Assembly: GCA_008690995.1 (NCBI GenBank)
Contig: VRMN01000012.1
Location: forward strand, 248,001-312,000
Direction of reading: 5' to 3'
Length of the DNA stretch: 64,000 nt
From: Porphyridium purpureum
Lineage: Eukaryota
Every line of letters starts with the position of its first letter. Position 1 is the first letter of the stretch. Of this stretch, positions 12,587 to 46,125 are shown piece after piece. The position numbers and the translations under genes are program-made. The notes under the pieces are model-generated. The model was not told the origin of the DNA. It did not search any database and saw only the letters and a program-made list of their open reading frames with translations.

Positions 12587-15500
12587 TCAAGTCGAGGTCC
12601 ACTCCTTCGCGTTCGGTTCACCCGGCCACATGCCTAGCTCCGGGAAAAGCTGCACGAGCGCCTTCATATTTGCACGCTTGCTAGGCTGCCTCTGGAACCA
12701 CAACCACTCCTCCAAGTTCGACACAGCGTGAGATTCAAAAAGAAATGCACAAGCACGCTCAGCACGCTCCACGTCACCGCCAAGGACGCCCAACATATAC
12801 TCCTCGAAGCCTTCGTATGATTTCCGGCTGGCCACCCAATTTTCAACTTTCATCTTGTCTGGTAACGACAGATGCACAAAGCCTTCGAACTCGCTCATGT
12901 CATGCAATGCCTCTCCATTCACCTTGCGCTCTCTTACATCCATAACCGATGCGGCGTCAACCCGCAAGACCTCCTCCAGTACTCGAGCCAGCTGCTCGCA
13001 CGTCAATTCATCAAGGGGAGTTTCCGCCAGCACACTCTCCAAGTCAGGGTCGGACCCGTCGCTTGATGATAGAATCTCAGCAGCATGATGATCCCCGTCG
13101 CTCTTGGTGTCAGGTGGGGACTGCCTGCTTTGATCCAGCGCCTGGGGCACAGACGTTGCGGCCTCGATCTGGATGTCCGCGATCAACTCCATGTCTCCAC
13201 ATGTCGCCTCGTCCACATCCAGCTTTATTCCTTTCTGCGCCATCGCCACCAGCCGCAACGCAATGTTGAACCGCTCCACATCAAGCCAGGAAAACAACCC
13301 TTCGCTGGTTGCAATCCCCCAGATCTCGTTCAGTACGCGGTTTCGCAGTCCGGATTTGGACAGAAATGCAACTGCGTTCTGCACGTCCACCTCCCCGCTT
13401 CCGCCCGCGTCGGCCAACTTCCAGTACTCGTCATGTCGCGTTGTCTCCAAGGGCGTACGCATGCACTTGGCGAACGGATTAGACCCTGGAATGTCTATCT
13501 TGGCGAGCAGCGAAGGCGAGCCTTGCCGGACACGAGACAGGCTTGCCTCTTCGCCGTTCTGCTCCAGCGCAATGAAGCGCAGCGCAAGCACAAAATCGTC
13601 ATACTGGAGTGTGCGCTTGCAGCGGGCTGTTGCAATCTCATTCCACATCCGATACAGCACCGAGGGGGCCAGCCGTGCCTTTGAAAAGAACGCCAGGGCC
13701 TTCTCAGCGTCCAGCTCTCCGCTCCCATCCGAGTCGGCAACCTCCCAGTAGATCTTGCAGTGCTTTTCTTCGTCGGCCACGGCTGACATGCTTTCTGGGC
13801 CACACTTCAGATCGCTTGTGTCCCACACCTTGATCGTCTGATCACCGCTGCCGGACACGATGAACCTGCCATCGGGCGAGAAGCGCATCGTCAGAATACG
13901 ATCTGAATGCCCTATCATGGTGCGCACACACGACCCGGTGTGGACATTCCATATCTTGATCGTCTTGTCAGCGCTGCCGGACGCGATGAAGCGACCATCC
14001 GGCGAGAAGCGCACCGCCAGTACCGAGTTTGCGTGCCCCATCATGGTGCGTACGGACGCGCCGGTACGTGTGTCCCAAAGCTTGACCGTCTTGTCCACGC
14101 TGCCGGACGCTACGAACTTGCCATCAGGCGACCAGCGCACTGCGAGCACCGAATTTGAGTGCCCCGTCATGGTATGCATGCATGTGCCAGCCAGCGCGTC
14201 CCAAACCTTGACCGTCGTGTCATCGCTACTAGACGCAATGAACCGGCCATCGGGCGAGAAGTGCAGCGCGAGCACAGAATTTGAGTGCCCCGTCATGTTG
14301 CGCAAGGACGCGCGGGCCAGCGCGTCCCACATTTTGACCCTTTTGTCACGTTTGTCCGGCGCGCTGGATCGAACGTCCGGCGACAAGTGCACTTCAGGCT
14401 CCGAGTCCGAGTGCACGCTTTGATCCGAGTCCGAGTGCACTTCAGGCTCCGAGTCCGAGAGCACTTCAGGCTCCGGATCAAAACGCACGGCAGGTGCTGA
14501 AGTGAAGTGCATCGCGGGCGCCGAATTGAAGTGCTCCGCGGGAGCCAAACTTGGATGCTCCGCAGGCGCCAAATTGAAGTTTTCCGCGGGAGCCAAACTT
14601 GGATGCTTTGCGGGCGCCGAATTGAAGTGCTCCGCGGCCGCCAAAGTTGGATGCTCCGCGGCCGCCAAAGTTGGATGCTCCGCGGCCGCCAAAGTTGGAT
14701 GCTCCGCGGCCGCCAAACTTGAGTACCCCGTCATGGTGCGCACGCACGCGCCGGTTTGTGCGTCCCACATCTTGACCGTCTTGTCACCGCTACCAGACGC
14801 TATGAACAGGCCATCTGGTGAGAAACACACCACCAGCACCGACTTTGAGTGCCCAGTCATGGTGCGCACACAAGCGCCGGTGTGTGTGTCCCATAACTTT
14901 GCCGTCGTGTCATCGCTGCCGGACCCAAGAAAATTGCCGTCGGGCGAGAAGTGCACCGTCCACACCCCATATGAGTGTCCCGTCATGGTACACACACATG
15001 CGCTTGTCTGCGCGTCCCACAGCTTGACCGTTGCGTCGTAGCTGCCCGTCGCGATGAGCCAGCCATCAGGCGAGAAGCGAATCGCGCACACCCAATCTGA
15101 GTGCCCCCTCATGGTACGCACGCAAGCGCCGGTGTGTGCGTCCCATAACTTTGCCGTCGTGTCGTCGCTTCCGGACGCAATGAACTTGCCATCGGGCGAG
15201 AAATGCACCGCACGCACCCAATCAGCGTGCCCCGTCATAGTACGGACGCACACACCGGTCTGCGCGTCCCAGACTTTAACCGTTTTATCACAGCTGCCGG
15301 AGACGATGAGCTTGCCATCGGGGGAGTAGTGCACCGCCCGCACCCAGCGTGAGTGTCCCGCCATCGTGCAAACACACACGCCGGTCTGAGCGTCCCACAC
15401 CTTGATCGTGCCGTCATCGCTACCAGACGCGATGAACTTGCCGTCGGGCGAAAAATGCACCGCCCGCACCCAATTTGAGTGCTCCTCCAAGACACGCACG

Positions 15501-15634
15501 CAGCTTCCGGTCTGCGCGTCCCACAGCCTGATCGTTTTGTCATCGCCGCCCGTCGCGATAAAGCGGCCGTCGGGCGAGAAGTGCAAGGCCCTCACCTCTC
15601 CAACGTGCCCCGGCAGAACCGACGCAGCCGCCAT
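12587..15634 (-). CDS. WD40 (11 intact + 1 split blade) - EH - NPF - EH - SAM-like multidomain protein
   Basis: Highly similar GH..V....FSPDG..IASGS.D.T.K.WD repeats. Two Eps15-homology-like domains (ADSDGSGELDAEKALAFFSKARL...LYRMW...FVLALRFIALEQNG and ADAGGSGEVD...AFLSKSGL...LNEIW...FNIALRLVAMAQKG). NPF at 13472-13480. SAM-like segment LTCEQLARVL...KVNGEALHDM. ATG at 15634. Confidence 0.88.
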   Translation of the reverse strand: MAAASVLPGHVGEVRALHFSPDGRFIATGGDDKTIRLWDAQTGSCVRVLEEHSNWVRAVHFSPDGKFIASGSDDGTIKVWDAQTGVCVCTMAGHSRWVRAVHYSPDGKLIVSGSCDKTVKVWDAQTGVCVRTMTGHADWVRAVHFSPDGKFIASGSDDTTAKLWDAHTGACVRTMRGHSDWVCAIRFSPDGWLIATGSYDATVKLWDAQTSACVCTMTGHSYGVWTVHFSPDGNFLGSGSDDTTAKLWDTHTGACVRTMTGHSKSVLVVCFSPDGLFIASGSGDKTVKMWDAQTGACVRTMTGYSSLAAAEHPTLAAAEHPTLAAAEHPTLAAAEHFNSAPAKHPSLAPAENFNLAPAEHPSLAPAEHFNSAPAMHFTSAPAVRFDPEPEVLSDSEPEVHSDSDQSVHSDSEPEVHLSPDVRSSAPDKRDKRVKMWDALARASLRNMTGHSNSVLALHFSPDGRFIASSSDDTTVKVWDALAGTCMHTMTGHSNSVLAVRWSPDGKFVASGSVDKTVKLWDTRTGASVRTMMGHANSVLAVRFSPDGRFIASGSADKTIKIWNVHTGSCVRTMIGHSDRILTMRFSPDGRFIVSGSGDQTIKVWDTSDLKCGPESMSAVADEEKHCKIYWEVADSDGSGELDAEKALAFFSKARLAPSVLYRMWNEIATARCKRTLQYDDFVLALRFIALEQNGEEASLSRVRQGSPSLLAKIDIPGSNPFAKCMRTPLETTRHDEYWKLADAGGSGEVDVQNAVAFLSKSGLRNRVLNEIWGIATSEGLFSWLDVERFNIALRLVAMAQKGIKLDVDEATCGDMELIADIQIEAATSVPQALDQSRQSPPDTKSDGDHHAAEILSSSDGSDPDLESVLAETPLDELTCEQLARVLEEVLRVDAASVMDVRERKVNGEALHDMSEFEGFVHLSLPDKMKVENWVASRKSYEGFEEYMLGVLGGDVERAERACAFLFESHAVSNLEEWLWFQRQPSKRANMKALVQLFPELGMWPGEPNAKEWTST
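14385..14722 (-). repeat. In-frame 24-bp (8-aa) tandem repeats (AAAEHPTL/APAEHFNS, then EPEVHSDS) inside a WD40 blade
   Basis: ggatgctccgcggccgccaaagtt x3 plus variants, and cacttcaggctccgagtccgag units. Confidence 0.9.
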
Positions 15635-15770
15635 CCCACCTCTCCCCTCTTCTTCCTTCAAGCACTGTTTACAACGCACCGTACAAAGCTACCGTCTTGG
15701 CGATTCCAACGACGGACGTGCGCAGCTAACCGCCACCTCTCTGCTCCAGTAACGCGCAAACGCACGCGCG

Positions 15771-15823
15771 CACCGGTTTTCCTGCGGAATGTCGAAATCG
15801 CTCGTGTTTCACGATTTTCAGCG
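15771..15823 (-). promoter_or_regulatory. Conserved bipartite upstream element shared with the paralog promoter (27243-27296)
   Basis: Minus strand reads CGCTGAAAATCGTGAAA-N16-ATTCCGCAGGAAAACCGGTG. Confidence 0.6.
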
Positions 15824-16403
15824 AAACGAGCTGCAGCGGGCGACGCGAGCGCGCACGAGAAAGTGTGAAGGAAATTGAGTTGGACGGTACCGTCTCACCT
15901 GAATACTACGGTGCGACCAGAAAGGATCCCGGCTACGCAGTTGCGAGAGCGTGGTGGAAGCGTGAAGTGGCATTTGCTCGGAAGATGCGAGCCGACATTG
16001 TGCGCGGAGGCACGCTTACAACGGGACTGGGGCCCAAGCTTAGATGCGTGCCAGAGGCTCGAGTGTTGCAAAGAAATGCTGCAAACCACACCGATTGAAA
16101 CTTTTTTGCCGAGCACAAAGTGCCCGCGCCTTGCAGCATTCTGCAATGATATCAATACCTACACGTTGACAGGGGGAAGTGCCTGATGTTGAAAATGGCT
16201 CGTCGTCCGCGCAATTCGCCACTCGTCCTCCGTGCCTGGCGCACCGCGCAGGCTCTCTGCCTTCGCCGGAGATTCCCTCAAGTAAGCTAATGGAGCACCG
16301 TTTACTTCTATACCTTCAGCCAAAAACCTCTGCCTCTATCTCTCTTGCTTCTCGCGTCTTCCGTGCGCTCCACTCGCCCTTTTATGCTCATCGTCTTCAC
16401 GGG

Positions 16404-16458
16404 AAACTGTGCAATCCGAAACCGTGCAATCCGAGGCTGTGCAATCCGAAACCGTGCC
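16404..16458. repeat. 15-bp tandem repeat, about 3.5 copies
   Basis: aaac(t/c)gtgcaatccg units. Confidence 0.8.
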
Positions 16459-16581
16459 ACCTGAAATTTTGTTCCTTGAGGTGGTGTGGGTAGTCGAATT
16501 CCAACTCAGACGGGACACAACATTTATATGAATTGCAGAGAGTGGAGGACTAAGGATTCTCATTAGGGTCTGTGTTCTCGC

Positions 16582-18405
16582 CTAAACCGCCAACGAGGAC
16601 AACTTGGAATCTCGTTTGAACCCGAATGGGTTTCTCAGACGCGAGGAGGTTCGATGCTTCGAAGACCTAGAAGAGCGCGGTGAGGTCGGGAACGGTGCTG
16701 CGTGCTTATTTTGAGGCAAGTTGAAAGGGTTAATGCCGGCGTCGACGCCGTGCCCATTTCCCTTCAACGACTTGGAGCTCGGCGATTGCGGGAACGGTGC
16801 CGCGAGCCCTCTTCCCTGCGCGCCAATCGGTTTGGTGCCGCCGTTGACGCCGTACTCATTTCCCTTCTGTGACTTTGACGAGTGCGGCGACTGCGGGAAC
16901 GGTCCCGCGATCCGGCTATCCTGCGCGCCAAACGGATTGCTGTCGTTCGTGTCGTCGCGCACCTCTTGCTTCAGCGACTTTGACGAGTGCGGCGACTGCG
17001 GGAACGGTCCCGCGATCCGGCTATCCTGCGCGCCAAACGGATTGCTGTCGTTCGTGTCGTCGCGCACCTCTTGCTTCAGCGACTTTGACGAGTGCGGCGA
17101 CTGCGGGAACGGTCCCGCGATCCGGCTATCCTGCGCGCCAAACGGATTGCTGTCGTTCGTGTCGTCGCGCACCTCTTGCTTCAGCGACTTTGACGAGTGC
17201 GGCGACTGCGGGAACGGTCCCGCGATCCGGCTATCCTGCGCGCCAAACGGATTGCTGTCGTTCGTGTCGTCGCGCACCTCTTGCTTCAGCGACTTTGACG
17301 AGTGCGGCGACTGCGGGAACGGTCCCGCGATCCGGCTATCCTGCGCGCCAAACGGATTGCTGTCGTTCGTGTCGTCGCGCACCTCTTGCTTCAGCGACTT
17401 TGACGAGTGCGGCGACTGCGGGAACGGTCCCGCGATCCGGCTATCCTGCGCGCCAAACGGATTGCTGTCGTTTGTGTCCTCACGCACATCTTGTTCCTCC
17501 GACTTTAGCGAGCTCTGCGAGCGCAGGAACGGTGCCGCGAGCCCTCTTCCCTGCACGCCAAACGGATTGGTGTCGTTTGTGTCCTCACGCACATCTTGTT
17601 CCTCCGACTTTAACGAGCTCTGCGAGCGCAGGAACGGTGCCACGTCCTCTTTCATGTTGGGGACAAACGGGTTGGTGCTGTCAATCTCGCTCGGCCCATC
17701 TCCCTTCAGCAACTTTGACGATTGCGGCGAGAGCGAGAACGGTGTGACCATAACGTTCTTCTGCGGGACAAACGGGTTGCTGACCTTCGTGTCGTCATGC
17801 ACATCTCCCTTTACCGACGTTAACGGGTGCGATACGAGCGGGACCGGTGCCATGTCCTCGCTCATCTTCGTGACAAACGGGTTGCTGCCCGTCTCAATTT
17901 CAGAATAACTTGATTGACTAGAATCAGATCGATCGACCGAAGATTCTCTGTCCATTCCGTCTTTCACGTATGTGTCAAGCATCGGCTTCGTCCCGTACGA
18001 GACTGGAGTTCGCTCGTCTTCCCTTCTTTTCATTCCTGGATACGAAACACCATTCTCACGCGGCTGCGGAATGGGTTCGGGAACATGCAGCGGAATCGGC
18101 TCCGAAATCGGCTGCGGAATAGGCTGCGGAATAGGTTGCGGATAGAACGTCTGATTCGTCTCTACCTTTTCCTCTTGTTCTTGCTCTAAGGGTCCCCAAT
18201 AGGAGAAATCAGGTGATGACCTCGAAACTGGCTCATCGCGCACGCCAACCCCTTTTCCGTCGACAGGTTGTGCGACGACGGCGGCATCGTTTTCAACGCT
18301 GCTCGGGATGGGCACGCTCTCGGTCGTTTTCGTCGGCGCTGCGTGGCTGTTGTGGTTAGCTTGAGGTTCTTCTCTAGGAAACAAGCATTCGCAGATATTC
18401 CCCAT
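16582..18405 (-). CDS. NPF-repeat disordered protein A with a putative N-terminal myristoylation/palmitoylation signal
   Basis: Starts MGNICECLF. Contains 12 NPF motifs. S/P/D-rich low complexity. Tandem paralog at 20504-22450. Confidence 0.85.
   Translation of the reverse strand: MGNICECLFPREEPQANHNSHAAPTKTTESVPIPSSVENDAAVVAQPVDGKGVGVRDEPVSRSSPDFSYWGPLEQEQEEKVETNQTFYPQPIPQPIPQPISEPIPLHVPEPIPQPRENGVSYPGMKRREDERTPVSYGTKPMLDTYVKDGMDRESSVDRSDSSQSSYSEIETGSNPFVTKMSEDMAPVPLVSHPLTSVKGDVHDDTKVSNPFVPQKNVMVTPFSLSPQSSKLLKGDGPSEIDSTNPFVPNMKEDVAPFLRSQSSLKSEEQDVREDTNDTNPFGVQGRGLAAPFLRSQSSLKSEEQDVREDTNDSNPFGAQDSRIAGPFPQSPHSSKSLKQEVRDDTNDSNPFGAQDSRIAGPFPQSPHSSKSLKQEVRDDTNDSNPFGAQDSRIAGPFPQSPHSSKSLKQEVRDDTNDSNPFGAQDSRIAGPFPQSPHSSKSLKQEVRDDTNDSNPFGAQDSRIAGPFPQSPHSSKSLKQEVRDDTNDSNPFGAQDSRIAGPFPQSPHSSKSQKGNEYGVNGGTKPIGAQGRGLAAPFPQSPSSKSLKGNGHGVDAGINPFNLPQNKHAAPFPTSPRSSRSSKHRTSSRLRNPFGFKRDSKLSSLAV
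16871..17470 (-). repeat. 105-bp (35-aa) near-perfect coding tandem repeat, about 5.7 copies
   Basis: gactttgacgagtgcggcg recurs at 16871, 16976, 17081, 17186, 17291 and 17396. The unit is DDTNDSNPFGAQDSRIAGPFPQSPHSSKSLKQEVR. Confidence 0.95.
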
Positions 18406-19330
18406 ATTTCCGCGCTCCTAGACAAGCCTCTCACAATCAAAACAAGCTTCCTCGAACGTCCGCCTCGACCTTTCGCGCCACTTGTGCACCAACGCCTTCC
18501 AATCTTTGCTTGCCGGAACCAAACTTGTACAAGTGCGCAGCGCCGTTCACTCCCTTCCTACCTTCGCGCGACATCCTCGCCATGTTTCTTTACCTAAATA
18601 TATTCTGACCCAGTCTCGAAATTCACACAGCAGGCCGACATCGGCGGCAGAAACTGCGGTTTCATAGTAAAACAGGCCTGTTTAGATATAGAAAATGGTC
18701 GAGCGGGCGCATCATTTGTCGCGTGGTGCGGCAAACTGACGGTCGGGTCGAGAAATGGCCGTGGCGTGCGCGTGGCGGTCGTACGCGAAGAGCTCGGCTC
18801 CGTGAACGCAGATGATGCCGGACTTCAATTTACGAGTGCGATGAACCGTTCGGCGAGAGCCGCAGAATGTCGTAAATCCTAAATTCATTTAGAGCTGTTC
18901 ATGTTGCCAATCGATGGTACCGTGTTGAAAAATGGCTCGCCATCCGCGCAATTCGCGACTCGGCCTCCGTGCCCGGTGGAGTGGGTTGTCGAATTCCATC
19001 AAGCGTGCGTGTGCGCATGCAGATTGTGGAAGGTTTTCAACTTCAGCTCGGAAAGCTGACCCTTGCGAGTCAAGAGGAACCATCGCAGTACTGTGTATTG
19101 TGCAGCCGCGCTGCAGTGTGAACCCAACACCATGCATCACTCTACGTGTGGGCTCTATGCAGGAGCCGGAAATGAAGAGTTGCCATCTGCTTCTACACGC
19201 GATCCGAGCCGTTCGTTGGCGGCGTTCCCCACTATGACTGCTCAGGACGGACTTGGCAAGTCGCTTCAACACAGGCGCTCGAACTCGCTTCTCAGCAGGA
19301 GCCCAAGCCTTCTCCCGGCACATCCACGCT
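18091..19330. repeat. Segment duplicated at about 22136-23280 (tandem duplication, offset about 4045 bp)
   Basis: 18091-18600 appears identical to 22136-22645. Similarity decays gradually further upstream of the genes. Confidence 0.85.
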
Positions 19331-20503
19331 CAAGCCTTCGCGGGCGCTCTATGGCCTGGCCACGTATCGCACAGACACCCAGTCGCGGTTTCCGGCGCTC
19401 CGGTGCACGCACTGAACACCGTCACTGAACCTCCGGGGAACTGTACCATATCGTATAATGTACACCCGGCGTGCGAGGGTACAGCGTAAGCACGTCGCTG
19501 CGGCGCGGGCCGGGCGAGGGCGGCAAGCGGTGGTTTGAAGCCGGATGATGCGCGGCGGCACGCGCGTGGACGAATGCGATGGAGCGTGTCATTGCCTTTC
19601 CGACCGGTGATGACGTGCTCATGCCAACGCCGTCTGTTGCACGTCAAATCGTACTCATATCGACCTCTCAGTCTAAGGAGGGGACATGACAAACACAAGC
19701 GCGCCACTTTGAGATCGCGGCCTCGCGGTCCCGCTCGGACCGAGGCGGGCTGAGGCTTGAACAGCGCGTGCATGTGGCGGTTCGCTGCGCGTACCGGTCG
19801 TCGCTTTGGTGCCCCCATTGGCGACGAGCCCTCGGGTCATCGCGAGCTTAAGTATGGCGCCCCCACGGGTCGTCGTCGCGCTCATCGCGAGGATTTGGAA
19901 TTTCTCGTCACATATAGTCCTACACAGATGACGACCACGAGTGCAGCTCCAGGCGAACTGCAGCAGCATGTCGATCGCATGGCCTTCCAGGCTACCAGCA
20001 TCCGCTGTGCTGTCGTCAGCGGCCCCTTCGTGCTCGAGCTCAGGACAGCCGCGAATGAGTGAGCGATCATGACGTCCAGTACGCGAATCCTGAACGACTC
20101 GACATGGCACAACGGCAATGCCGGGCCCCGCTTGGGCTACTGGAAGCTGGACTACGCGACGCGGGCCGTACATGCCCCAGCGCACGCCGCGGGCACGGCT
20201 ACGGCACGTTGTCGAGCATGCCACTCCTCCCACAATGGCTGAGGCTTCCAGCACGCAGATAACGGTCCGCGGCTGAGTACCACAGCTCCAGCGCCAACTG
20301 TCTTTATGAGCGCGACTGGCGTCTACGCATGCGTAAGGTACAACACAGCAAGACCGCAGCAGAGACAACACTTTTACATGTACTACAAAGAGCAACGTAC
20401 AAAGGAGTCTGGGTTTGGGTCTGTGTTCTCGCCAGAAGTAGCTGCGTGCATCTGAGAAGCTGCGGGGACATTTATGCATCCAAAGCTCGTCCTGGCACCT
20501 CGC

Positions 20504-22450
20504 TTAAACCGCCAACGAGGACAACTTGGAATCTCGTTTGAACCCGAGTGGGTTTCTCAGACGCGAGGAGGTTCGATGCTTCGACGACCTTGAAGAGCGC
20601 GGCGAGTCCGGGAACAGTGCTGCGTGCTTATTTTGAGGCAACTTGAACGGGTTGCTGCCGGCGTCGACGCCGTGCCCATTTCCCTTCTGCGACTTTGACG
20701 AGTGCGGCGAGTCCGGGAACGGTGCTGCGTGCTTATTTTGAGGCAACTTGAACGGGTTGCTGCCGGCTTCGACGCCATACCCATTCCCCTTCAGCAACTT
20801 TGAGCTCGGCGATCGCGGGAACGGTGCCGCGAGCCCACTCACCTTTGCGCCAAACGGGTTACTGTCGCTGCTGTCGGCGTCGACGCCATACCCACCTCCC
20901 GTCTGCGACTTTGACGAGCTCGGTGATCGCGGGAACGGTGCCGCGAGCCCACTCACCTTTGCGCCAAACGGGTTATTGTCGCTGCTGTCGGCGTCGACGC
21001 CCAGGCCATACTCTTTCAGCAACTTTGAGCTCGGCGATTGCGGGAACGGTGCTGCGAGCCCACTCGCCTTTGCGCCAAACGGGTTGTCACCGTTGCTGCG
21101 GACGTCGACGCCCAGGCCATACTCTTTCAGCAACTTTGAGCTCGGCGATTGCGGGAACGGTGCTGCGAGCCCACTCGCCTTTGCGCCAAACGGGTTGTTG
21201 CCGTTGCTGCCGGCACTTATGCCAAGCCCATCTCCCTTCAGCGACTTTGACGAGTGCGATGATTGCGGAAACGGTGCTGCGAGCCCACTCCCATTCAAAC
21301 TGAACGGGTTACTGCCGACGTCGACGCCAAGACCATATTCTTTCAGCAACTTTGAGCTCGGCGATTGCGGGAACGGTGCCACGAGCCCACTCGCCTTTGC
21401 GCCAAACGGGTTGTTGCCGTTGCTGCCGGCACTTATGCCAAGCCCATCTCCCTTCAGCGACTTTGACGAGTGCGATGATTGCGGAAACGGTGCTGCGAGC
21501 CCACTCCCATTCAAACTGAACGGGTTACTGCCGACGTCGACGCCAAGACCATATTCTTTTAGCAACTTTGAGCTCGGCGATTGCGGGAACGGTGCTGCGA
21601 GCCCACTCCCATTCAAAGCGAACGGGTTGCTGCCGACGTCGACGCCAAGACCATATTCTTTCAGCAACTTTGAGCTCGGGGGTTGCGGGAACGGTACCAC
21701 GAGCCCACTCCCATTCAAATCAAACGGGTTGTTGCCGTTGCTGTCGGCACTTATGCCAAGCCCATCTCCCTTCAGCGACTTTGACGGGTGCGACGATTGC
21801 GGAAACGGTGCCGCGAGCCCTCTTCCCTGCGCGCCAAACGGATTGCTGCCGGGAATGCTATCTTTACGCACATCTTGTTCCTCCGACTGTGGCGGCTTCG
21901 GCATGTCCGCCATTGGTGCCACGGGCTTGCTGACCTCCGGGACAAAAACATTGGTTCCGGTCCCAACTTCAGAATGACTTGTTTGACCAGAAACAGATCG
22001 ACCGCCCGAAGATTCTTTCTCCGCTCTGTTTTCCTCGTCGTTGCGGACATGTGGTTCAATGATTACCAAGACCGGAATTCGCTTTTGAGGTTTGGCTTTT
22101 TGCTTTCCTGAATACGGATCATCCACTTCCTTCGGCGGAATCGGCTCCGAAATCGGCTGCGGAATAGGCTGCGGAATAGGTTGCGGATAGAACGTCTGAT
22201 TCGTCTCTACCTTTTCCTCTTGTTCTTGCTCTAAGGGTCCCCAATAGGAGAAATCAGGTGATGACCTCGAAACTGGCTCATCGCGCACGCCAACCCCTTT
22301 TCCGTCGACAGGTTGTGCGACGACGGCGGCATCGTTTTCAACGCTGCTCGGGATGGGCACGCTCTCGGTCGTTTTCGTCGGCGCTGCGTGGCTGTTGTGG
22401 TTAGCTTGAGGTTCTTCTCTAGGAAACAAGCATTCGCAGATATTCCCCAT
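20504..22450 (-). CDS. NPF-repeat disordered protein B with a putative N-terminal myristoylation/palmitoylation signal
   Basis: Same first ~105 aa as protein A. Contains 12 NPF motifs in 32-36-aa imperfect repeats (GSNPF...GLAAPFPQSPSSK). Shares the C-terminus ...GFKRDSKLSSLAV with A. Confidence 0.85.
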   Translation of the reverse strand: MGNICECLFPREEPQANHNSHAAPTKTTESVPIPSSVENDAAVVAQPVDGKGVGVRDEPVSRSSPDFSYWGPLEQEQEEKVETNQTFYPQPIPQPIPQPISEPIPPKEVDDPYSGKQKAKPQKRIPVLVIIEPHVRNDEENRAEKESSGGRSVSGQTSHSEVGTGTNVFVPEVSKPVAPMADMPKPPQSEEQDVRKDSIPGSNPFGAQGRGLAAPFPQSSHPSKSLKGDGLGISADSNGNNPFDLNGSGLVVPFPQPPSSKLLKEYGLGVDVGSNPFALNGSGLAAPFPQSPSSKLLKEYGLGVDVGSNPFSLNGSGLAAPFPQSSHSSKSLKGDGLGISAGSNGNNPFGAKASGLVAPFPQSPSSKLLKEYGLGVDVGSNPFSLNGSGLAAPFPQSSHSSKSLKGDGLGISAGSNGNNPFGAKASGLAAPFPQSPSSKLLKEYGLGVDVRSNGDNPFGAKASGLAAPFPQSPSSKLLKEYGLGVDADSSDNNPFGAKVSGLAAPFPRSPSSSKSQTGGGYGVDADSSDSNPFGAKVSGLAAPFPRSPSSKLLKGNGYGVEAGSNPFKLPQNKHAAPFPDSPHSSKSQKGNGHGVDAGSNPFKLPQNKHAALFPDSPRSSRSSKHRTSSRLRNPLGFKRDSKLSSLAV

Positions 22451-24437
22451 ATTTCCGCGCTCCTAGACAAGCCTCTCACAATCAAAACAAGCTTCCTCGA
22501 ACGTCCGCCTCGACCTTTCGCGCCACTTGTGCACCAACGCCTTCCAATCTTTGCTTGCCGGAACCAAACTTGTACAAGTGCGCAGCGCCGTTCACTCCCT
22601 TCCTACCTTCGCGCGACATCCTCGCCATGTTTCTTTACCTAAATAGATTCCGACCCAGTCTCGAAATTCACACGGCAGGCCAACATCGGCGCCAGAAACT
22701 GCGGTTTCATAGTAAAACAGGCCTGTTTAGATATAGAAAATGGTCGAGCGGGCGCATCATTTGTTGCGGTGCGCGGCAGACTGACGGTCGGGTCGAGAAG
22801 TGGCCGTGGCGTGCGCGTGGCGGTCGTACGCGAAGAGCTCGGCTTCGCGAACGCGGAGCATGCCGGACTTCAATTTACGAGTGCGATGAACCGTTCGGCT
22901 GGAGCCGAGGAATGTCACAGATCCGAAACCCGTTCGCAGCTGTTTAGGCGGCGAGGTGACTTTGCCTGTGCGCAGGCGGATCAGGGAAGGTTTGCAACTT
23001 TAACTCGCGAATGTGAACTTTGCGAGTCGAAGGGACCATCGTGGTAGTGTATAGTCAACCCGTGTTTCGGTGTGCATCCGACACCAAGCGTCGGTTCACG
23101 TGTGTGCTGTATGTAAGAGGTGGTGAAGAGATCCCAGCTCCTTCCGCACGCCATGCACGGCGCTCGTTGGCGGCTTTCGCTATCGGGCCCTTAAGGACAG
23201 ACAGGCCAAACCGCGTCGGTACGCGCGCACGAAGTCCGTTCTCAGCACACGCACAATCCTTCTCTAGGCACATACGTGAGATCTTTCTGTCTCTCTACTT
23301 TCTCTAATTTACAGCACAGCCACAAAAACCGTGGGAACTTTCGACTTGGTCCTCATCATTCTATCGCGTCGTCATGACCTAGCGACTCGCATAGTATCCA
23401 AGAACGACCTTCTCCCTTGGTACCCATCTGATCACAAACTCGACCGCACGAACCCATGATCAATCGAACAGACCTGTTGCGCGCTAAAGGTAGTTTTCAT
23501 AAGATCGCGAAAACCTTGGCAAACCAACGCCCGCCGGTCTCCGTATCCGATACGATATTACAATTATTATTATTTGTCAATCCTCGTCCTGTGCAGACCC
23601 TTTTCTCGTGACCACGTCAGTTTCCCCCTCCAAAAAGCCATGATATGATTTATTTTTCCACGGCATCCCAAGAAACAGAGCAAGAAAGACACCTTTGGAC
23701 GTTCCACTCAACGTGCGACTCCATCATGAGCGCATACCGCCGTGTCCATTTACAACTCACGCAAGACCTCCCTCATTCCCCCCGTTTCCCCCCTCCCCCA
23801 CACACACACACGCTTCTGAAATTTTGCAGTGTCGGTTTCCGTAGCAAAACCACACGAATTTATGGGAGTTAGAAAGGCGAGCACCAAAATTGAATTCATC
23901 TAGCAAACGATGACTTTTTAGTAGGAAACAGTGAGCACAGCAATTCATATGCGTAGGTGCATTCTTTTGATACCGACGGCTGACAAGATGACACAAGGGT
24001 TAGTTGGTGTGCAACGTTTATATTATGGTCTAGTGTGACACGACGGGCATATGCTGTATACGGCGACTGCCTCGATTGGGAAGAAGTCTTGCAACACGAA
24101 CCGGCCTGTTTCAGTAGATCGTTCGACAATCTCACCGTGCGTACTCAAGCCTTCCCGTAGGAAAGAGACGGTGGGAAAGAAGGAAGGTGACAAGGAAAGA
24201 AAGCTGGGAACGATAGCCAAGGGGAATAAGTGTTGTTGTACCGTGGCAAGCCGTGAAAGTTGTACAAGGTGTCGTGTTGCTCGGCTGCACGGAAAAGAGC
24301 GGCAAACAGACTTGCACGACTGCCGACGAGTCGAACTTTTTCGTGTTCGCATTGCGGCACCTAGACGTAGTGCTGGCATCTTCACGCGCGGACGCCGATT
24401 GTTACAAACGGGGAGCACGCACGAAGGACAGGACAAC

Positions 24438-26324
24438 ATGGCGTCTGTGAGTGAAGGTACCACAGCGCCTGGCGAAGCCGGCGCAGCCAGCGGTCCTTCG
24501 CGCCTATCGCAGGAGCGCGCCGCGTCAATTAAAGTCATGCAGAGGCAGATGGAGAGCATTGATGCTTCTGTGCAGAACATTGGCAACGAAATTCAAGCCG
24601 CGGACGCCGCGTTGAAGGCAATGACGGAAGATATCAGCGCCAGAACAGAGAGAATCAAGCGGCTTATCGAACGTGGCAAGAGCACGGAATTGACTCTAAA
24701 CCAGGAACGAAAACTGCTTCAAGAAGCCGAACAAAAGCTCCATGAGACGAAGCAGCTGATTCGGAGACTGGACATGCAACACAAAGCTATACATTTGGAG
24801 ATCACCAAGAAACGTGCAAAACTCGCGGCGCTTGATGACCCGCGCGTCGACGGTGCAAAGCTGGAACATCTGCGCAACGAACTGCGTGAGACAGAATCTA
24901 AAGTGCAGCGGACGCAAGAGGAGCGCGCAGCGATCTATCGAGAGCAATCGAGGATTGAGCTCGAGAAGCAAAGGGTCCAGAGCGATGCCAATAACAGGAA
25001 GTTGGAGACGGAGAGAACGCAGCAGCGGATTCGGGAGGCCCAGAAACAGCAGCTGGCTGTAAAGCAGCGAATGCTGGATCTCAAGCGGGCCATGGAGGCC
25101 AAAAACCAGGAAATTGCGCTCGAAAATCAGAAGCGAGAGGCGGCACAGCAGTTCGGCAAAGGCGCGGTTACCGCGGGGACAATCGGTGCCCTCGTTCTTC
25201 CTGGCCTTGGTTGGCTATTTGCAGCCGGTGCTGCCGCCGCTGCCGTCGGAAGCCTGGCACAGGTATGCTATCACATGGGACGCGCGAAAAGCCTGAGATC
25301 CCAACTGGAGCGAATGCGGGCTGATATGGTGGACTTGGAATCATTGATGATGAACATCGGGGTTCACATGCAGCAGTTAAGCGAGGAGTTGCAGATGAAC
25401 AAAGCGTCAGAACAAGCCTCGGTTTCGGAAATGCACAAGGTAACCGGAGAGGAGCGCGAAGCGCGTCGTCGATTTGAGGTTAAAACGCACCAGCTGGAGG
25501 GTCTTGTTGAGAGGCAGGGTAAACTTGAGGGGCTCACAGTGACCGAACAGGAGAAGATTGAGAGAATGAAGGCGGATCTGCACCAACAGTTGGGTGAGCA
25601 CGTTGCCTCGATTTCCGAGGTTGAGAGCATGCTGATGGTCCAAAATGAGGCGTTGGCCGATGGTGTCGAGCTGACAAAGCAGAAACAGGCTCAGCTTACG
25701 AATTTGACCGTGGCACTGGAAGAGGTTAAAGGTGAGCTGATTGTCGAAAATCAGGAACTGACTTACGCGAAAAAGAATCGGGACGCAAAGTGTACAGAAA
25801 TGACGTCTCTGAAGCGTGCTGAAAACGAACTCAAGAAGGATCAGAAGGAACTGAAAAAGACGGTCGCAGAAACGATACAATCGCTACGAAATGAGGAGCT
25901 TGCAAGAAAAAAGCAGGAGGAACTTGCCAAGTTGTTGGAGCAGAAGAAGCAGGAGCAGCAGGAAAAAGAAAAGGAGGAACGCTTAGCACATGAGCACCAT
26001 TTGAAAGAGAAGGAAGAGATCAGAGCGCGCTTGGCACTTCAGCAACAGCAGAAGAAAGAGAAGGATTACACGACCGTTCAAAATACCGGAAAGGCGACCA
26101 ATGTCACGGGAGTAACGACCACTCGCTATACGTCGGTGCAAGGGTCACACGGGCAAATGTCCGGAGAGGCGCCGCAGTCAAAGAGACAATCCGCATTAAA
26201 TCTGGAAAAGACAAAAAGTACTTTGCAAGCGCTGGACGAGGCAGCGACACTTCCCGCAGGTGCAGAAGTGCCGGAGAAGCAGAAGTCGAAGAAGATGAGC
26301 TCGGTGATGCAGTTGGCTGCTTAG
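24438..26324 (+). CDS. Long coiled-coil protein with a central Gly/Ala-rich hydrophobic hairpin
   Basis: ATG 24438 (MASVSEG). E/Q/K/R/L heptad-rich helices flank GAVTAGTIGALVLPGLGWLFAAGAAAAAVGSLA. Confidence 0.8.
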   Translation: MASVSEGTTAPGEAGAASGPSRLSQERAASIKVMQRQMESIDASVQNIGNEIQAADAALKAMTEDISARTERIKRLIERGKSTELTLNQERKLLQEAEQKLHETKQLIRRLDMQHKAIHLEITKKRAKLAALDDPRVDGAKLEHLRNELRETESKVQRTQEERAAIYREQSRIELEKQRVQSDANNRKLETERTQQRIREAQKQQLAVKQRMLDLKRAMEAKNQEIALENQKREAAQQFGKGAVTAGTIGALVLPGLGWLFAAGAAAAAVGSLAQVCYHMGRAKSLRSQLERMRADMVDLESLMMNIGVHMQQLSEELQMNKASEQASVSEMHKVTGEEREARRRFEVKTHQLEGLVERQGKLEGLTVTEQEKIERMKADLHQQLGEHVASISEVESMLMVQNEALADGVELTKQKQAQLTNLTVALEEVKGELIVENQELTYAKKNRDAKCTEMTSLKRAENELKKDQKELKKTVAETIQSLRNEELARKKQEELAKLLEQKKQEQQEKEKEERLAHEHHLKEKEEIRARLALQQQQKKEKDYTTVQNTGKATNVTGVTTTRYTSVQGSHGQMSGEAPQSKRQSALNLEKTKSTLQALDEAATLPAGAEVPEKQKSKKMSSVMQLAA

Positions 26325-27242
26325 TGTCAATTTGGCTTTTGTTCATTCGGTTGTACATTGCAGTCTATCATGTCAATTGTGTGGGGTGCAAATTGCGAGA
26401 CGCTTACGTGCCTTCGGGGCCAAGAGAGGCGCGCTGCGTTTAGATCAACGGAGAGGTTTCTCGAACACGAAATGTTGGTTCGATTGGGGTCCGCCATGCA
26501 GCTTGGGGTGCAGTAATGTTGCTTATTGAGCAGAGGGCGCGGCCGTCGGGCGTGGAAAAGGCTTTGTTTGATGCAGGCCAGCATCCTTGTGCCACGATAG
26601 GGATAAAGAGATAGATCCGTTCGTTTGGCTTCCAGACTGTAAATTGCGTCTACTGTTCGTGGCGCTGCATTTGGCCGCACATGCGGACTACGACAACCAA
26701 AGACGAACGGGCCGGCGGTGGTGCTGTACCATGTGCGATCTCTTGAGCTCTGTTCAACATTAAAGTCCGTGCATATATTGAAGCCATACGTGTCGACAAT
26801 GGTAAGCCGGCCGCGGTCTGCGTGTGACGGAGCGTTTGTTTAGAGTCGTCGCACGGCTAGATACCTTGAATGATGATTCTTAGAAGGCATGCGCATCACG
26901 TGACGGCGTCCTACCTCCGCACTGCGCGAACATCCAAGACGGGTTTCCATTCCTCCGTACCACCACCATGATCCCTATGTGCCTGCGTGAGTCTCCTTTA
27001 TCACGCCGTGTCCATCCTATTCTGCAATTGTAATTCACTCTTTACACGCTGAGCAGCTATCTAACGTGCTTCCTGCTGATCTGCGCCTCATATGTACGTC
27101 TGTCCACGCGTGCACGCGACTCAGAATCAGCCATCGCTCCCATGTGCCCGCATGTAGCCGAGTCGAGCGCACCACAAGGCACAAAGTCGCGCAGCAGCCG
27201 CGTTGTGTGTTTATTTTTTGCTTCGCGCGCTGCGCAATGCTG

Positions 27243-27296
27243 CGCTGAAAAATCGTGAAAAGCTCGCGTGTTCGCGATTCCGGAGGAAAAGCGGTG
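27243..27296 (+). promoter_or_regulatory. Conserved bipartite upstream element shared with 15771-15823
   Basis: CGCTGAAAAATCGTGAAA-N16-ATTCCGGAGGAAAAGCGGTG. Confidence 0.6.
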
Positions 27297-27370
27297 TGTG
27301 CACGGGCAGGTGAGAGGGAGAGAAGGTAGCGTTGTGGACGGTCGATGTGAAGGAGGGACCAAGAGGTGCA

Positions 27371-29518
27371 ATGGCGGCTGTGCTAAATCTGACGGGGCAC
27401 TCAGACCATGTGAACGCGCTTGACTTCTCGCCCGATGGCAGGTTCATCGCGTCCGGCAGCTCGGACAAGACGATCAAGGTCTGGGACGCACACACCGGCG
27501 CGTGCGTGCGCACTTTGACGGAGCACTTTGATGAGGTGGGGGCGGTGCGCTTCTCGCCCGATGGCAAGCTCATCGCATCCGGCAGCAGTGACACTGCGGT
27601 CAAGCTGTGGGACGCACACGCTGGCGCGTGCGTGCGCACCATGAAGGGGCACTCAGGTTTGGTTTGGGCGGTGGACTTTTCGCCCGATGGGCGGTTCATT
27701 GCATCCGGCAGCAGTGACACTGCTGTCAAGGTATGGGACACACGCACCGGCATGTGCGTGCGCACCATGACAGGGCACTTGAGTTCAGTTTTGGCGTTGG
27801 ACTTTTCATCGGATGGCCGGTACATCGCCTCTGGCAGCAATGACAAGACGGTCAAGCTGTGGGACGCATACACCGGTGCGTGTGTGCGCACCATGATAGG
27901 GCACGCAGATTTGGTGTGGGTGGTGCAGCTTTCGCCCGATGGCCAATTCATTGTGTCCGGCAGCGCCGACAAGACGGTCAAGCTCTGGGACGCACACACC
28001 GGTGCGTGCGTGCGAACCATCGCGGGGCACTCAAATTCGGTATGTGCGGCGCACTTTTCGCCCGATGGCCGGTTCATTGCGTCCGGCAGCGCGGACAAGA
28101 CGATCAAGTTGTGGGACGCAGACACCGGCACGTGCGTGCGCACTATCACAGGGCGCTCAGATTGGTTACTCATGCGTGTTATGCGGTATTTAGCTGGGGC
28201 GAACGAGGGGCATTCAGGTGAGGTGCAGGCTGTGCGCTTCTCGCCCGATGGCCGGTTCATCGCGTCCGGCAGCGCGGACAAGACGACCAAGGTGTGGGAC
28301 ACAAGCGACCTACATTGCGGCCGTAGAAACACGTCGAGTGCGCCCGAGGAGGACCAGTATTGCAAGGGCTATTGGGAGATTGCCGACTCGGATGGGAGCG
28401 GAGAGTTGGACGCTCAGGAGGCGCTGGCGTTCTTCTCAAAGGCGCGGCTGTCGACTTCGGTGCTACATCGGATGTGGGATGAGATTGCAGTAGCCCGCGG
28501 CAAGCAAGCGCTAAACTATGACGACTTTGTGCTCGCGCTTCGCTTCATTGCGCTGGAGCAGAACGGCGAGGAGGGCAGCCTGGCGCGTGCGCAACAAGGT
28601 CCGCTCTCGCTGTGTGCCAAGATAGACATACCAGGGTCGAACCCGTTTGCCCTTGGCGCGCGCACGCTGTCGGAGACAGCGCAGCACGAGGTATACTGGA
28701 AGCTGGCCCAGGCGGACGGAAGCGGTGAGGTGGACGTGCAGGGAGCGGTTGCGTTTTTGTCCAAATCTGGACTGCGGAACCGCGTGCTGAATGAGATCTG
28801 GGGCCTTGCGACTAGCCAAGGGGTCTTTTCGACGCTCGACATGGAGCGGTTCAAGACTGTGTTACGGCTGGTGGCGATGGCCCAGAAGGGAATGAAGCTG
28901 GACTTGGACGAGGCGGCAGGTGGCGACATGGAACTGATCGCGGACATCAAGGTAGAGGTCACAACAACTTTGCCAGAGCCAACGAGTTCTTTTGCGCGGC
29001 CTTCGCGTCCCGCGACAAGCGTTGTGGACTATCATGCCGCTGAGATTCAATCGCCAGGCAACGGGTGGGACACCGACTTGGAGAGTATGCTTGAGGAAAC
29101 TCCCCTGGACGATCTGACTTGTGAGCAGCTGGCTCGAGTTCTGGAAGAGGTCTTGCAAGTTGACAGCGCATCAGTGAGGAATGTGAGGGAGCACAAGGTG
29201 AACGGTGTGTCTCTGCACGATATGAGGAGGTTTCAAGAGATTGCAAATCTGTCATTCCCGGACAAGAGGAAAGTCGTAAAGTGGGTCGCGGAACGGAAAT
29301 CGGACGAAGGTTTCAAGGAGTACCTGGCGGGTGTCTTTGGCGGTGACTGGGAGCGTGCTGAGCATGCTTACGCATTGTTGGAGAAATACGCAATTTCGAA
29401 TCGAGAAGAGTATCTGTTGTTCCGCTCACAACCAAGCCAGCGAGCAGCTGTGAGGGCGATTGTCCGGCGCTTTCCAGAACTTGGCACGTGGCCGAGAGGA
29501 CCGGTCGCACGGAAGTAG
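27371..29518 (+). CDS. WD40 (7 blades) - EH - NPF - EH - SAM-like protein (inverted paralog of 12587-15634)
   Basis: Seven FSPDG-type WD40 repeats. EH1 ADSDGSGELDAQEALAFFSKARL...LHRMW. DIPGSNPF with NPF at 28640-28648. EH2 AFLSKSGLRNRVLNEIW...LRLVAMAQKG. SAM-like LTCEQLARVL...KVNGVSLHDM. ATG at 27371. Confidence 0.88.
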   Translation: MAAVLNLTGHSDHVNALDFSPDGRFIASGSSDKTIKVWDAHTGACVRTLTEHFDEVGAVRFSPDGKLIASGSSDTAVKLWDAHAGACVRTMKGHSGLVWAVDFSPDGRFIASGSSDTAVKVWDTRTGMCVRTMTGHLSSVLALDFSSDGRYIASGSNDKTVKLWDAYTGACVRTMIGHADLVWVVQLSPDGQFIVSGSADKTVKLWDAHTGACVRTIAGHSNSVCAAHFSPDGRFIASGSADKTIKLWDADTGTCVRTITGRSDWLLMRVMRYLAGANEGHSGEVQAVRFSPDGRFIASGSADKTTKVWDTSDLHCGRRNTSSAPEEDQYCKGYWEIADSDGSGELDAQEALAFFSKARLSTSVLHRMWDEIAVARGKQALNYDDFVLALRFIALEQNGEEGSLARAQQGPLSLCAKIDIPGSNPFALGARTLSETAQHEVYWKLAQADGSGEVDVQGAVAFLSKSGLRNRVLNEIWGLATSQGVFSTLDMERFKTVLRLVAMAQKGMKLDLDEAAGGDMELIADIKVEVTTTLPEPTSSFARPSRPATSVVDYHAAEIQSPGNGWDTDLESMLEETPLDDLTCEQLARVLEEVLQVDSASVRNVREHKVNGVSLHDMRRFQEIANLSFPDKRKVVKWVAERKSDEGFKEYLAGVFGGDWERAEHAYALLEKYAISNREEYLLFRSQPSQRAAVRAIVRRFPELGTWPRGPVARK

Positions 29519-31348: not shown

Positions 31349-34300
31349 ATGGTCTCCGAAGATATTGATTGCTATAGCGTGTGCCAGGAGCATGCGGAAG
31401 TCGCGGCCGCGTTTGCGGAAGCTCGCTTGAAGCACGGCCTTGGTGCTGAAGACGCTGAGCGTATTTTGATCGGACGCCTTGAGGAGATGCAGGAGCTCTC
31501 TGAAGTACCCTACGTGAAGTTCCTTGCCAGTAAGTCGACGGCTCAGCTAAAAGACGAAGTTGTCTCTCTCATGGAACTTATGGGAACCTTGGAGCAGGCG
31601 CAGAAAGGAGCAGAAAGGTACGAACTCGGGCGTTTCTTAGGTCTTTCGAAAGGGCAGTCGATGGTTTCCTCCTCAAATGCAAATGGGAATTTGGGCAGTG
31701 GGCCTGATGCACCCGCGGCGCCTGCAAGCTCAGTTGGCACCGCTAGTGCTCAGTTTCAGGCCTTTCCGGATAGTCCTCGCGACGAATATGACAGTCTAGA
31801 GGCCCCCTCTCTCCATCTCGCGTTCAGTCAGCAGACGCACCATGACTTTGTGCTCGCAAATTTCTTCCAGGGCAGCGTGGACGCGTTCAAAGAGGCACTT
31901 GCAGGCTCGGCGCGGTATCAGGCTCAGCAAGGCGCGTCCAAGCTGTTCGCGGATATTGAAATCGATGAGGAGCCTTCGCAAGGAGGTACGAAGCTTATCC
32001 CAGAGCCTTTTTCGTGTCGCGTGTTGCCGCCGACGGTGGCGGTGATCAAGGAAGCCAAGGCCGCGTTCGTGCAAGCGAGTCACGTGCATGTCGCTGTGGG
32101 AGGTGCTGAACAGCCGAAGCTGGAGAAAACGGTCGTCGCCGAGCGAAAAGTGGAAGAGGAACTGAGGGCCTTTGCACGATACTTGATTTATACCGCGCAG
32201 CCGACGCCAGACCCCTTCAAGAACAATTGCGACCTCAGCTTACGTTCGCAGGATGTGTTGGGCGCAGTCGCGGAGGTAGGAAACGTTCTCATGGGTATTG
32301 AGGACGTGCAGCGTCAAATGCGTATCGGGTTCCGGCTGTTTGAGAGCACGAAATCGCTGCCGCGCGGCGTGATGTTTTACGGCCCTCCGGGAACCGGTAA
32401 AACCTCTCTGATTGTCAAGCTCTGCGCTCTGTTGGACATTCACTTGGTGGCTCCCATGCTTGCCGCGGGCGACTTTGCGAAGCCATTGGTCGGCCAAGCA
32501 GAGGAGATGATCAACCAACTTGCACTGCGCGCCGCTGCGGTTCCATGGCGACTTTGCTGTGTTGTTGTTGACGAGATTGAGTCACTCGTAACTTCGCGCG
32601 GCAAAGGCGGCGGCGACTCGAGCAAGCTGAGCGTACTTTTGTCTCGGATCGGCGGCGTATCAGACGTGCCCAACTTGATGTTCTTTGCGGCGACGAATCA
32701 TCCAGAAATGATGGACTCGGCATTTCTTCGGCGCATGAAGATCAAGATTTTTGTAGGACCGCCTTCGTCTGAGGGCCGCGCGAGCTTTGTGCGCCGACTA
32801 GGGAGCGATATCTTTGAGACCAAGGGCCACGTGTGCAATGATCAAGGTGAAGACAAGGGAGGGTCATGCGATCATGCCGGCTGCGCGCTGGAGCGTGCCA
32901 CGATCAAAATGACGGTCAATTTTGCCGCGTCACAAATTGTGGGTGCTCTCACACGCGTGCGAAGCGTTCTGGCTGACTACAAGGCCGAGGACATAGCTGT
33001 CAACGACGCGTTCGATCTGATACATGCGGCAGTTGCGCAGTTTACGGAAGAGGAGAACATTCTCATCTCGTCGGTGTACAACCAGGTTAATATCATGGCA
33101 CCCTTCGTGCGACCCAAAGGGCGGACGCTGGAGCATCTGGTGCGTGATAGTAAGAGGCTTCAGTACCTTTTGTCTGAGAATGGCCGTCGCAAGGCGAATT
33201 GTTCGGGTCGCATTGTCATAGACTTGACTGCTCCAAGGGACCACATCCAAGTGCAGCTGAAGCCGCAGAAGATGGATCTGGGTCAGCAACGATTCATCGT
33301 GGAGCCGGCAGAAGTTGACCCGAAAGAGTTCCCGGACTCGATGTTGATCGGAGGAGGACAGAGCTTTGCAGACGCATTGGGCGACGAATCTATGCCATGT
33401 CTTGAGCTTTTGCCCTTGGTGGGACCATTGCGACAGTATTTTCGAGACTCGCCGGTTTGGGTGGAAGGTCAGACATTTGTCAGTGCCATCCTTCAGTACA
33501 AGGAATGTGTTGGGCTTGCTCCGAAGAAGCGCAGTTCAAAAACTGTTCAAGCCTTCTTGGAGCAAACAAAGGCCTTATGGCATGCTCCTACTCCTTCCCC
33601 CGCTAGTGGCGCCGCTCGTAGCGCTGGGGCTATACCCAAGCTTGTGCTGGAGCAGTACTACAACGGAGACTCGAAGCCATACCGTTCTCTTCTCGAACAA
33701 ATTGAGAAACGGGTGAGAAGTAGAGCGCAGGCCCTTTCCTTCGCTCTGAAAGAGCAGTACCCGAAAGAAGTACTGGAGGAGCGATACGAATGCTTTTCTT
33801 TTGTCCGGGACGCGCGCGACTTGAGTGTAGAGGATCTGTTGGCTGTGTATTTGCATCTGGGTGTTGCGTGCAACACGACCCGACTTCTTTACATTTGCAG
33901 AGAATTTTTTCACAGCAACAAGATTGTTGCAGAGGGCGAGATGGAACTGTTCTGGCACGAGCAGATCAAGTCCTTGAAAAATGAGTACAAATCTGGCATG
34001 GTGATCATTGACTACGACTCTCTCGCCAACCCTGTGAAGGACAAGCTAGGCGAGGACCGCTTTGATCTCGTTCAGCTCATGGCGTCCATTGCGGCCACAT
34101 TCCGAGCGTCGTCAGACCACTTGTGGTTCCTCGCTGTCAGTGGGAACAAAGCCATTATTTCGCGCATCATCGAGAACAGCAAATGGCGACCAGCCATTGA
34201 CACAGATCCGCCGCTTCGCTGTTATAATTGCGGCAAGTGGGCGCGTCAGAGCATTAACAAGAAAACGTCTTGTGGGCGCCATACGGGAGACTTGGTTCTA

Positions 34301-40681: not shown

Positions 40682-40902
40682 CACTCCTTTTGCAAATGCG
40701 TGCACCTCGCTCACGTGTTGATGCCGGAGCGCGCGTGCGTCCTTCATCTTGGTAATGCCGAGCAAAGCGTCGCGCATCCTGGCGAATCTCTTGCCTTGGA
40801 GCGGCTTCGTCAGGGCGTCTGCAAGAGTATCGTCTGTCTTGCAGTATTTCATTGTCACGTTTCCCTTTTCCACATGGTCGCGTATGAATCAATGTCTGAT
40901 AT

Positions 40903-44981: not shown

Positions 44982-45014
44982 GCTCTTCTTTCCACCCTTC
45001 GCCAGGCCGCACCA

Positions 45015-46110: not shown

Positions 46111-46125
46111 TTTGCTGTCCGCTTG

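Follow-up and report, generated by a model that had tools for sequence, protein, structure and literature searches.

WD40-EH-EH proteins of Porphyridium purpureum and neighboring genes for 12-motif NPF arrays, their candidate ligands

The recognition of Asn-Pro-Phe (NPF) motifs by EH domains is textbook knowledge; epsin, AP180/CALM, and stonin are NPF-bearing EH ligands, and the EHD/RME-1 proteins hold an EH domain and an NPF/GPF-type motif in one chain, where the two possibly self-dock. Here, we describe a locus of the red alga Porphyridium purpureum in which two genes that combine WD40 repeats with a pair of EH domains lie on either side of two genes whose products carry 12 NPF motifs each. 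It occupies positions 12587..29518 of the window, i.e., the whole stretch of 64,000 nucleotides (nt) that was analyzed (assembly GCA_008690995.1, contig VRMN01000012.1, positions 248,001 to 312,000 of the forward strand). The non-opisthokont Eps15-type form is without further globular domains (PMC4824007), a plant EH domain was reported to bind a double-NPF ligand with a dissociation constant (Kd) of 59 µM (PMC8144573), and red algae have few subunits of the TSET complex (PMC12167817).

The interpretation that we favor, at a probability of roughly 50%, is that the WD40-EH-EH proteins are Porphyridium-specific, likely trafficking adaptors, that the NPF arrays are likely multivalent EH ligands, and that the genes were assembled at this locus by separate local duplications. 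We refer to the five open reading frames (ORFs) of the locus as gene 1, NPF-A, NPF-B, the coiled-coil gene, and gene 2; in this order, the WD40-EH-EH gene and both NPF genes on the minus strand are followed by the coiled-coil gene and the second WD40-EH-EH gene on the plus strand. An earlier sequence-only reading of this DNA had placed WD40 repeats and the motifs LYRMW/LHRMW and LNEIW in the ORFs at 12587-15634 (minus strand) and 27371-29518 (plus strand), and 12 NPF motifs and an MGNICEC start in each inner gene; translation of the four long ORFs (gene 1, NPF-A, NPF-B, and gene 2) bears this out. Gene 1 (12587..15634; 1015 amino acids [aa]), identified by translation, Pfam, and RNA, begins with a WD block at about 14765-15631, continues through a low-complexity spacer into a second block at about 13820-14362, and ends with EH1 (13496..13780), a linker containing an NPF in the context IPGSNPF (13472..13480), EH2 (13172..13444), and an all-helical tail (12590..13045), all on the minus strand. 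The single WD40 propeller per protein of that reading therefore does not describe gene 1, which instead has two WD blocks (7 + 5 repeat ends). Gene 2 (27371..29518, plus strand; 715 aa) encodes seven WD repeats at 27374-28300, EH1 at 28340-28624, a linker NPF at 28640-28648, EH2 at 28676-28948, and the tail at 29075-29515. NPF-A (16582..18405, minus strand; 607 aa) is a low-complexity protein with the MGNICEC start, a basic C terminus, and its 12 NPF motifs within 16624-17883; NPF-B (20504..22450, minus strand; 648 aa) has the same start and its 12 motifs within 20645-21844.

We mapped three stranded RNA runs from one study, of which 20-25% each was read, and found sense-strand reads on all five genes at low levels. 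Sense depth was 1.9-3.7 for gene 1 (at 12828-13491), 4.1-4.5 for NPF-A (at 17476-18139), and 12.7-20.3 for gene 2 (at 28764-29427), and sense transcripts of NPF-A and NPF-B were present in all three runs. Gene 1, NPF-A, NPF-B, and gene 2 are genuine genes without introns, transcribed at a low level. Splicing that would join the minus-strand genes was considered and set aside: a GT..AG joint was seen in none of the three runs, at low depth. Gene 2 is present in the public protein collection (P0003), in which gene 1, NPF-A, and NPF-B were not found; a fused form of gene 1, sought at 717-2045 aa, was likewise not found there, which is weak evidence. No structured RNA or tRNA was found.

Pfam, PDB sequence, and fold searches agree that the paired domains are EH domains, as had been proposed. 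Scanned alone, all four exceeded the curated cutoff of 22 bits of the Pfam EH model (PF12763), with 26.6 (EH1) and 33.1 (EH2) bits in gene 1 and 30.7 and 30.9 bits in gene 2. The top PDB sequence match was EH1 of Eps15 (E = 8e-10), and the top Foldseek match of the predicted model was an AtEH1/Pan1 EH domain (TM score of 0.80 by target; root mean square deviation of 1.8), with the paired EF-hand fold. Family profiles of EH1 and EH2 both best matched the first EH domain of proteins of the Eps15 type from various eukaryotes. The ratio of nonsynonymous to synonymous substitution rates (dN/dS) between gene 1 and gene 2 is 0.33 for EH1 and 0.21 for EH2; by these values, the EH domains are under purifying selection. 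In EH2 of Eps15, the NPF pocket is given as Val151, Leu155, Leu165, and Trp169, with Gly148 and Gly166 at its rim (PMC2238750). When equivalent residues were placed by their distance from the Trp, the pocket floor was retained in all four domains as Ala, Leu/Phe, Leu, and Trp, respectively.

We recovered 10 loci of the WD40-EH family on six contigs, gene 1 and gene 2 included, of which four are on the window's contig and at least eight lie outside the window. Six are of the full WD40-EH-EH-tail form (two of them identical over the EH-tail region), and four are partial or split. Every close relative comes from a record under the name Porphyridium purpureum. A search of 1.84 billion representatives gave 606 matches; of the best 150, the top ones, above 36% identity, were all from this species, and the rest were multi-EH or Eps15-type proteins; a WD pattern scan found WD repeats in none of 143 nonfamily EH proteins. 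Several of the multi-EH records (P0012 and P0014-P0023) have two to six EH domains, some with SH2, SH3, PTP, or PDZ domains, and the three named ones that were looked up are from choanoflagellates. JGI metagenome contigs queried with the EH alignment and with the NPF protein N terminus yielded no related loci. The literature searched, which mostly excluded subscription journals, listed no account of a fusion of WD40 repeats with EH domains, of the present genes, or of a cluster of this kind; the gene-family tables of the Porphyridium genome papers, outside this coverage, may bear on the novelty. The architecture, which the sequence-only reading had not recognized, has no counterpart outside P. 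purpureum among the matches listed or in that literature and thus looks new and specific to the Porphyridium lineage. The same reading had held that numerous, randomly scattered families would make the adjacency a matter of chance; the WD40-EH family is scattered in this way, whereas the NPF family appears small.

Tandem EH domains that resemble the first EH of Eps15-type proteins and retain the pocket Leu and Trp liken these proteins to Eps15, Ede1, intersectin, and AtEH/Pan1. In Eps15, Ede1, and AtEH, however, N-terminal EH domains are followed by a coiled coil, whereas here the EH pair follows the WD40 repeats and precedes a short helical tail, in a chain without a coiled coil that has an atypical pocket rim and an internal NPF and belongs to a multicopy family. 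They share with EHD/RME-1 an EH domain plus an in-chain NPF but have an Eps15 EH1-type pair and no dynamin-like ATPase.

The WD40 repeats recall those of the fungal HET-E/HNWD proteins, which also show high internal conservation (PMC1805685). The repeats are 61% identical on average over 18 repeats, and in a comparison of 36 repeats identity was 59% within genes and 58% between them. Variable positions 8, 10, 26, and 28, of which the first three are among the most variable, flank the near-invariant V9 and D27; a similar pattern, with variable codons 7, 9, 25, and 27, is described for HET-E (PMC1805685). Paralogs are also named HET-E-1 in the source records. In contrast to HET-E/HNWD, the EH pair here takes the place of the cell death module: the chains are fully accounted for by WD40 repeats, low-complexity spacer, two EH domains, and a 150-aa tail, and no NACHT or HET domain was seen in the WD40-EH chains among the best 25 of 56-58 family matches. 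Two further HET-E-like WD40 genes in the window (56804-58216 and 58549-60606, minus strand) have different tails, one of them an acidic repeat, and no EH domain was seen in them.

The tail is conserved and all-helical, with a dN/dS of 0.18-0.29 between gene 1 and gene 2 (0.18 in its first part). It had been read as SAM-like. SAM clusters of the ESM Atlas resemble it at 0.85, a lead only by that tool's grading; no Pfam or PDB profile match to SAM was obtained, and SAM entries were absent from two fold searches made with a weak tail model (pLDDT of 61.7, with residues 45-79 under 50). We therefore keep the SAM likeness as a weak lead only.

In each NPF protein the motif recurs about every 35 aa (34-38), with no unit skipped, and is usually preceded by S, T, or N. 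Shuffled sequences contain a mean of 0.17-0.19 NPF and a maximum of 3 in 5000 shuffles. In a repeat analysis that omits the terminal unit of each gene and reduces 24 units to 19 distinct ones, the NPF is intact in 18 of the 19; the proportion of nonsynonymous differences (pN) at its three codons is 0.04, 0.00, and 0.04, versus 0.30 overall, the synonymous proportion (pS) being 0.32, and synonymous variation is present. On the unit tree, its residues change 1, 0, and 1 times, both changes falling in one unit, against three to eight times for flanking positions. By these measures, the NPF motif is selectively kept among the repeat units. No folded domain or transmembrane segment was found in either protein, DPF, DPW, and clathrin-box motifs were not seen among the patterns scanned, and the last 30 residues have a net charge of +7. 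The arrays resemble plant SCAMP5, an NPF-bearing EH ligand, in their repeated S/T-NPF in a low-complexity, likely disordered chain (PMC8144573). They differ from known NPF ligands in the regular spacing of their 12 motifs, one every 35 aa, in the lack of a folded domain or a transmembrane segment, and in a gene that adjoins EH genes; sequence and literature searches returned no counterpart of a domain-free 12-NPF array. We also considered descent of the array from the WD40-EH linker and rejected it: IPGSNPF occurs once in both, but it is encoded by different codons, and no DNA match between them is better than one of 10 nt (E = 0.43).

From these observed domains, motifs, transcripts, and dispersed loci, we infer a working model whose steps from binding onward are conditional. 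The HET-E-type propeller would select cargo or a foreign ligand through its variable face, and both EH domains, being Eps15 EH1-like, would bind S/T-NPF. Since plant EH-NPF binding is weak at the above-mentioned Kd (PMC8144573), 12 copies spaced 35 residues apart would strengthen it through avidity. In the resting state, one pocket may be filled by the linker NPF until the array displaces it, and the arrays, likely disordered, would bring WD40-EH proteins, or different EH proteins, together at a membrane. Their contact with the membrane would be made by S-acylation of an N-terminal Cys and/or through the basic C terminus rather than by canonical myristoylation. The genes themselves would have been assembled in a tract of fast evolution through local duplications that were separate events, and not through the copying of a linked pair, because gene order, synonymous divergence (dS), and family dispersal fit this course.

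Several observations weigh against our interpretation, the first of which concern the pocket itself. We compared its rim with 336 EH-like motifs in 141 of 143 other fetched proteins, a background that consists of the query's top matches and in which the Leu and Trp are given by the search pattern itself. At the Gly148 equivalent, EH2 has Val, a residue seen in none of the 336 motifs (Gly in 224, Ala in 83), and at the Gly166 equivalent it has Asn, seen in one; both are fixed in all eight family EH2 copies. EH1 of gene 1 and gene 2 has Ala at the Gly148 equivalent, as in the 83 motifs just mentioned, and His or (in gene 1) Tyr at the Gly166 equivalent, as in 8 and 2 of the 336, respectively. 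The EH1-EH2 linker holds an NPF of its own in six of the eight family members with a linker, gene 1 and gene 2 among them, and an NPL in the other two. Moreover, the bracket formed by the two WD40-EH-EH genes is interrupted by the unrelated coiled-coil gene (24438..26324, plus strand; 628 aa), a transcribed gene between NPF-B and gene 2 that the sequence-only reading had not mentioned. These features would suit a situation in which the two kinds of genes are unrelated neighbors: the arrays would serve Eps15- or EHD-type EH proteins or another NPF receptor, the WD40-EH pockets would have changed specificity or be filled by the linker NPF, and the tract would simply gather young repeat-rich families. 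The spread of the 10 loci over six contigs, four on this one, is in line with this, as is the presence in the window of the two HET-E-like WD40 genes, a DUF285 gene, an AAA ATPase, a long terminal repeat (LTR) element, and dispersed repeats. However, both partners appear to be lineage specific and lie 947 bp (gene 1 start to NPF-A stop) and 4.9 kb (4920 bp, NPF-B start to gene 2) apart, and the pocket floor together with purifying selection argues for a working site. We regard mere neighborhood as unlikely, though a serious contender.

A second group of contrary points concerns the NPF genes. Twelve residues downstream of the NPF lies a second PF that is conserved to the same degree (18 of 19 units), so the repeat may be retained for another reason. 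Expression is weak, and in the 5' half of NPF-B antisense reads match sense reads; over 21460-22790, antisense is equal to or above sense. Taken with an overall repeat pN about equal to pS, and with the failure of NPF-B to find any homolog, even itself, at 356-1134 aa in the protein collection, this might indicate that the NPF genes have no protein function and are either repeat ORFs that expanded recently and evolve almost neutrally or artifacts of the assembly. We consider this highly improbable: both copies maintain open frames of 600 aa, the conservation is specific to motifs, dN/dS is 0.31 over the last 64 codons, sense transcripts recur in every RNA run, and DNA contigs of two runs cover the region piecewise. 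In run X3, the arrays have a DNA depth of single-copy level, which gives no sign of additional arrays nearly identical to these. One contig each in runs X1 and X3 joins 16582-16605 to 18421 or 22466. An NPF-gene leader with five differences, joined to the last 24 coding bases and followed by another 3' flank, points to a candidate third locus.

The membrane anchor that had been proposed, a dually acylated N terminus, is doubtful. The N-myristoyltransferase (NMT) motif quoted in PMC9018777, M-G-[^DEFRWY]-X-[^DEKR]-[ACGST]-[KR], was derived from human and plant enzymes, and by that standard MGNICEC fails at Glu6; the portion of PMC8689648 available to us holds no information on the motif. Cys5 and Cys7, the only Cys residues in either NPF protein, do lie near the N terminus, but a Cys at position 5 was poorly palmitoylated in the reporter of PMC9018777. 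For the WD repeats, uncorrected pN is 0.58, 0.61, and 0.58 at positions 8, 10, and 26 and 0.40 at position 28, only slightly above the mean pS of 0.47 at the first three; positive selection, a mark of four repeat codons in HET-E/HNWD, is therefore not established here.

The last contrary point is the linkage itself. For a genome that we take to be 20-22 Mb in size, a random locus would fall within 5 kb of one of the 10 family loci in about 0.5% of cases (about 0.1-1%, for one side), so that the adjacency argues for more than chance; this figure ignores the after-the-fact choice among many windows, which inflates the odds, and the window's wealth of young repeat families. With family members on both sides of the NPF genes and HET-E-like variability in the repeats, sensor-adaptor and scaffold genes could have been kept by selection as a matched set, like fungal NLR-effector pairs, to form one recognition-and-uptake unit. 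This is quite unlikely in our estimation. Had a WD-NPF block been copied in tandem, the two kinds of genes would alternate; had it been copied in inverted orientation, the NPF genes would face opposite ways. The locus shows neither arrangement, and thus no single block duplication accounts for the order and orientation. The ages differ as well: dS is 0.74 between gene 1 and gene 2, as against 0-0.43 between NPF-A and NPF-B (no difference in the first 316 nt of coding sequence or in the 195 nt upstream, 0.16 at the 3' end, and 0.43 in the middle, where the alignment is poor), although gene conversion may hide the age of the latter, given their identical stretches. The family tree is poorly resolved, and holding gene 1 and gene 2 together lowers the log likelihood by 23 (approximately unbiased test, P = 0.069), so that their sisterhood is neither supported nor rejected; and at least eight family loci lie outside the window. 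The operon-like, co-duplicated, dually acylated receptor-ligand pair of the sequence-only reading is accordingly not upheld as stated. A stronger form of the idea, which we find very doubtful, is a linked variable-receptor uptake system in which diversifying HET-E-style propellers are coupled to an EH pair that is shut by the linker NPF and is opened or condensed at uptake sites by the 12-valent membrane scaffold encoded next door; if true, it would amount to an immune-like sensor that is linked to endocytosis rather than to cell death and is maintained as a gene cluster.

Dispersed repeats may have helped the NPF genes to duplicate. A short one lies between gene 1 and NPF-A (16187..16466, with a related piece at 18923-18998), recognized by raised DNA depth, many loose ends, and self-BLAST, and a high-copy one lies between NPF-A and NPF-B (19736..19912), with a bin depth of 945 in run X1 versus about 25-50 in unique bins. 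Repeats of both kinds border the NPF genes, and transcripts of them come from copies elsewhere. A 77-nt stretch of 74% identity is common to the upstream regions of gene 1 (about 15890-15960) and gene 2 (about 27220-27296) and is possibly a promoter element of the family.

The coiled-coil gene product has one hydrophobic Gly/Ala-rich segment in midchain (about residues 252-270); Pfam, PDB, and Atlas searches with it were blank, and NCBIfam SMC matches were far below the cutoff. Its derivation from a split-off Eps15 coiled coil was rejected, the match to the fetched EH proteins having an E value of 0.039 versus 0.085 for a reversed control. Elsewhere in the window, 1.8 kb after gene 2, a 1062-aa protein (31349-34537, plus strand) has one AAA ATPase domain (PF00004, E = 1e-20), and large flanks with no assigned domain, which include a Cys/His cluster near the C terminus. 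It is followed by a long acidic, Gly-rich ORF with no Pfam or NCBIfam match (35683-38010, minus strand), the LTR element (40416-46418; its terminal repeats, each about 267 nt long, are 94% identical, and its minus-strand ORFs are broken), which is presumably Copia-like and in which we read by eye what we take to be a reverse transcriptase-type YVDD motif, a DUF285 repeat protein that is predicted to be secreted and has a PKD-like stretch (51301-52983, plus strand), and a LanC-like gene (55277-56416, minus strand).

The endocytic machinery of red algae is little studied, and an expanding, lineage-specific family of adaptors, together with a multivalent ligand that matches it, would offer a concrete entry point into it. 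In addition, the evolution of EH specificity and of self-inhibition could be tested cleanly on the Val/Asn rim that is fixed in EH2 and on the internal NPF.

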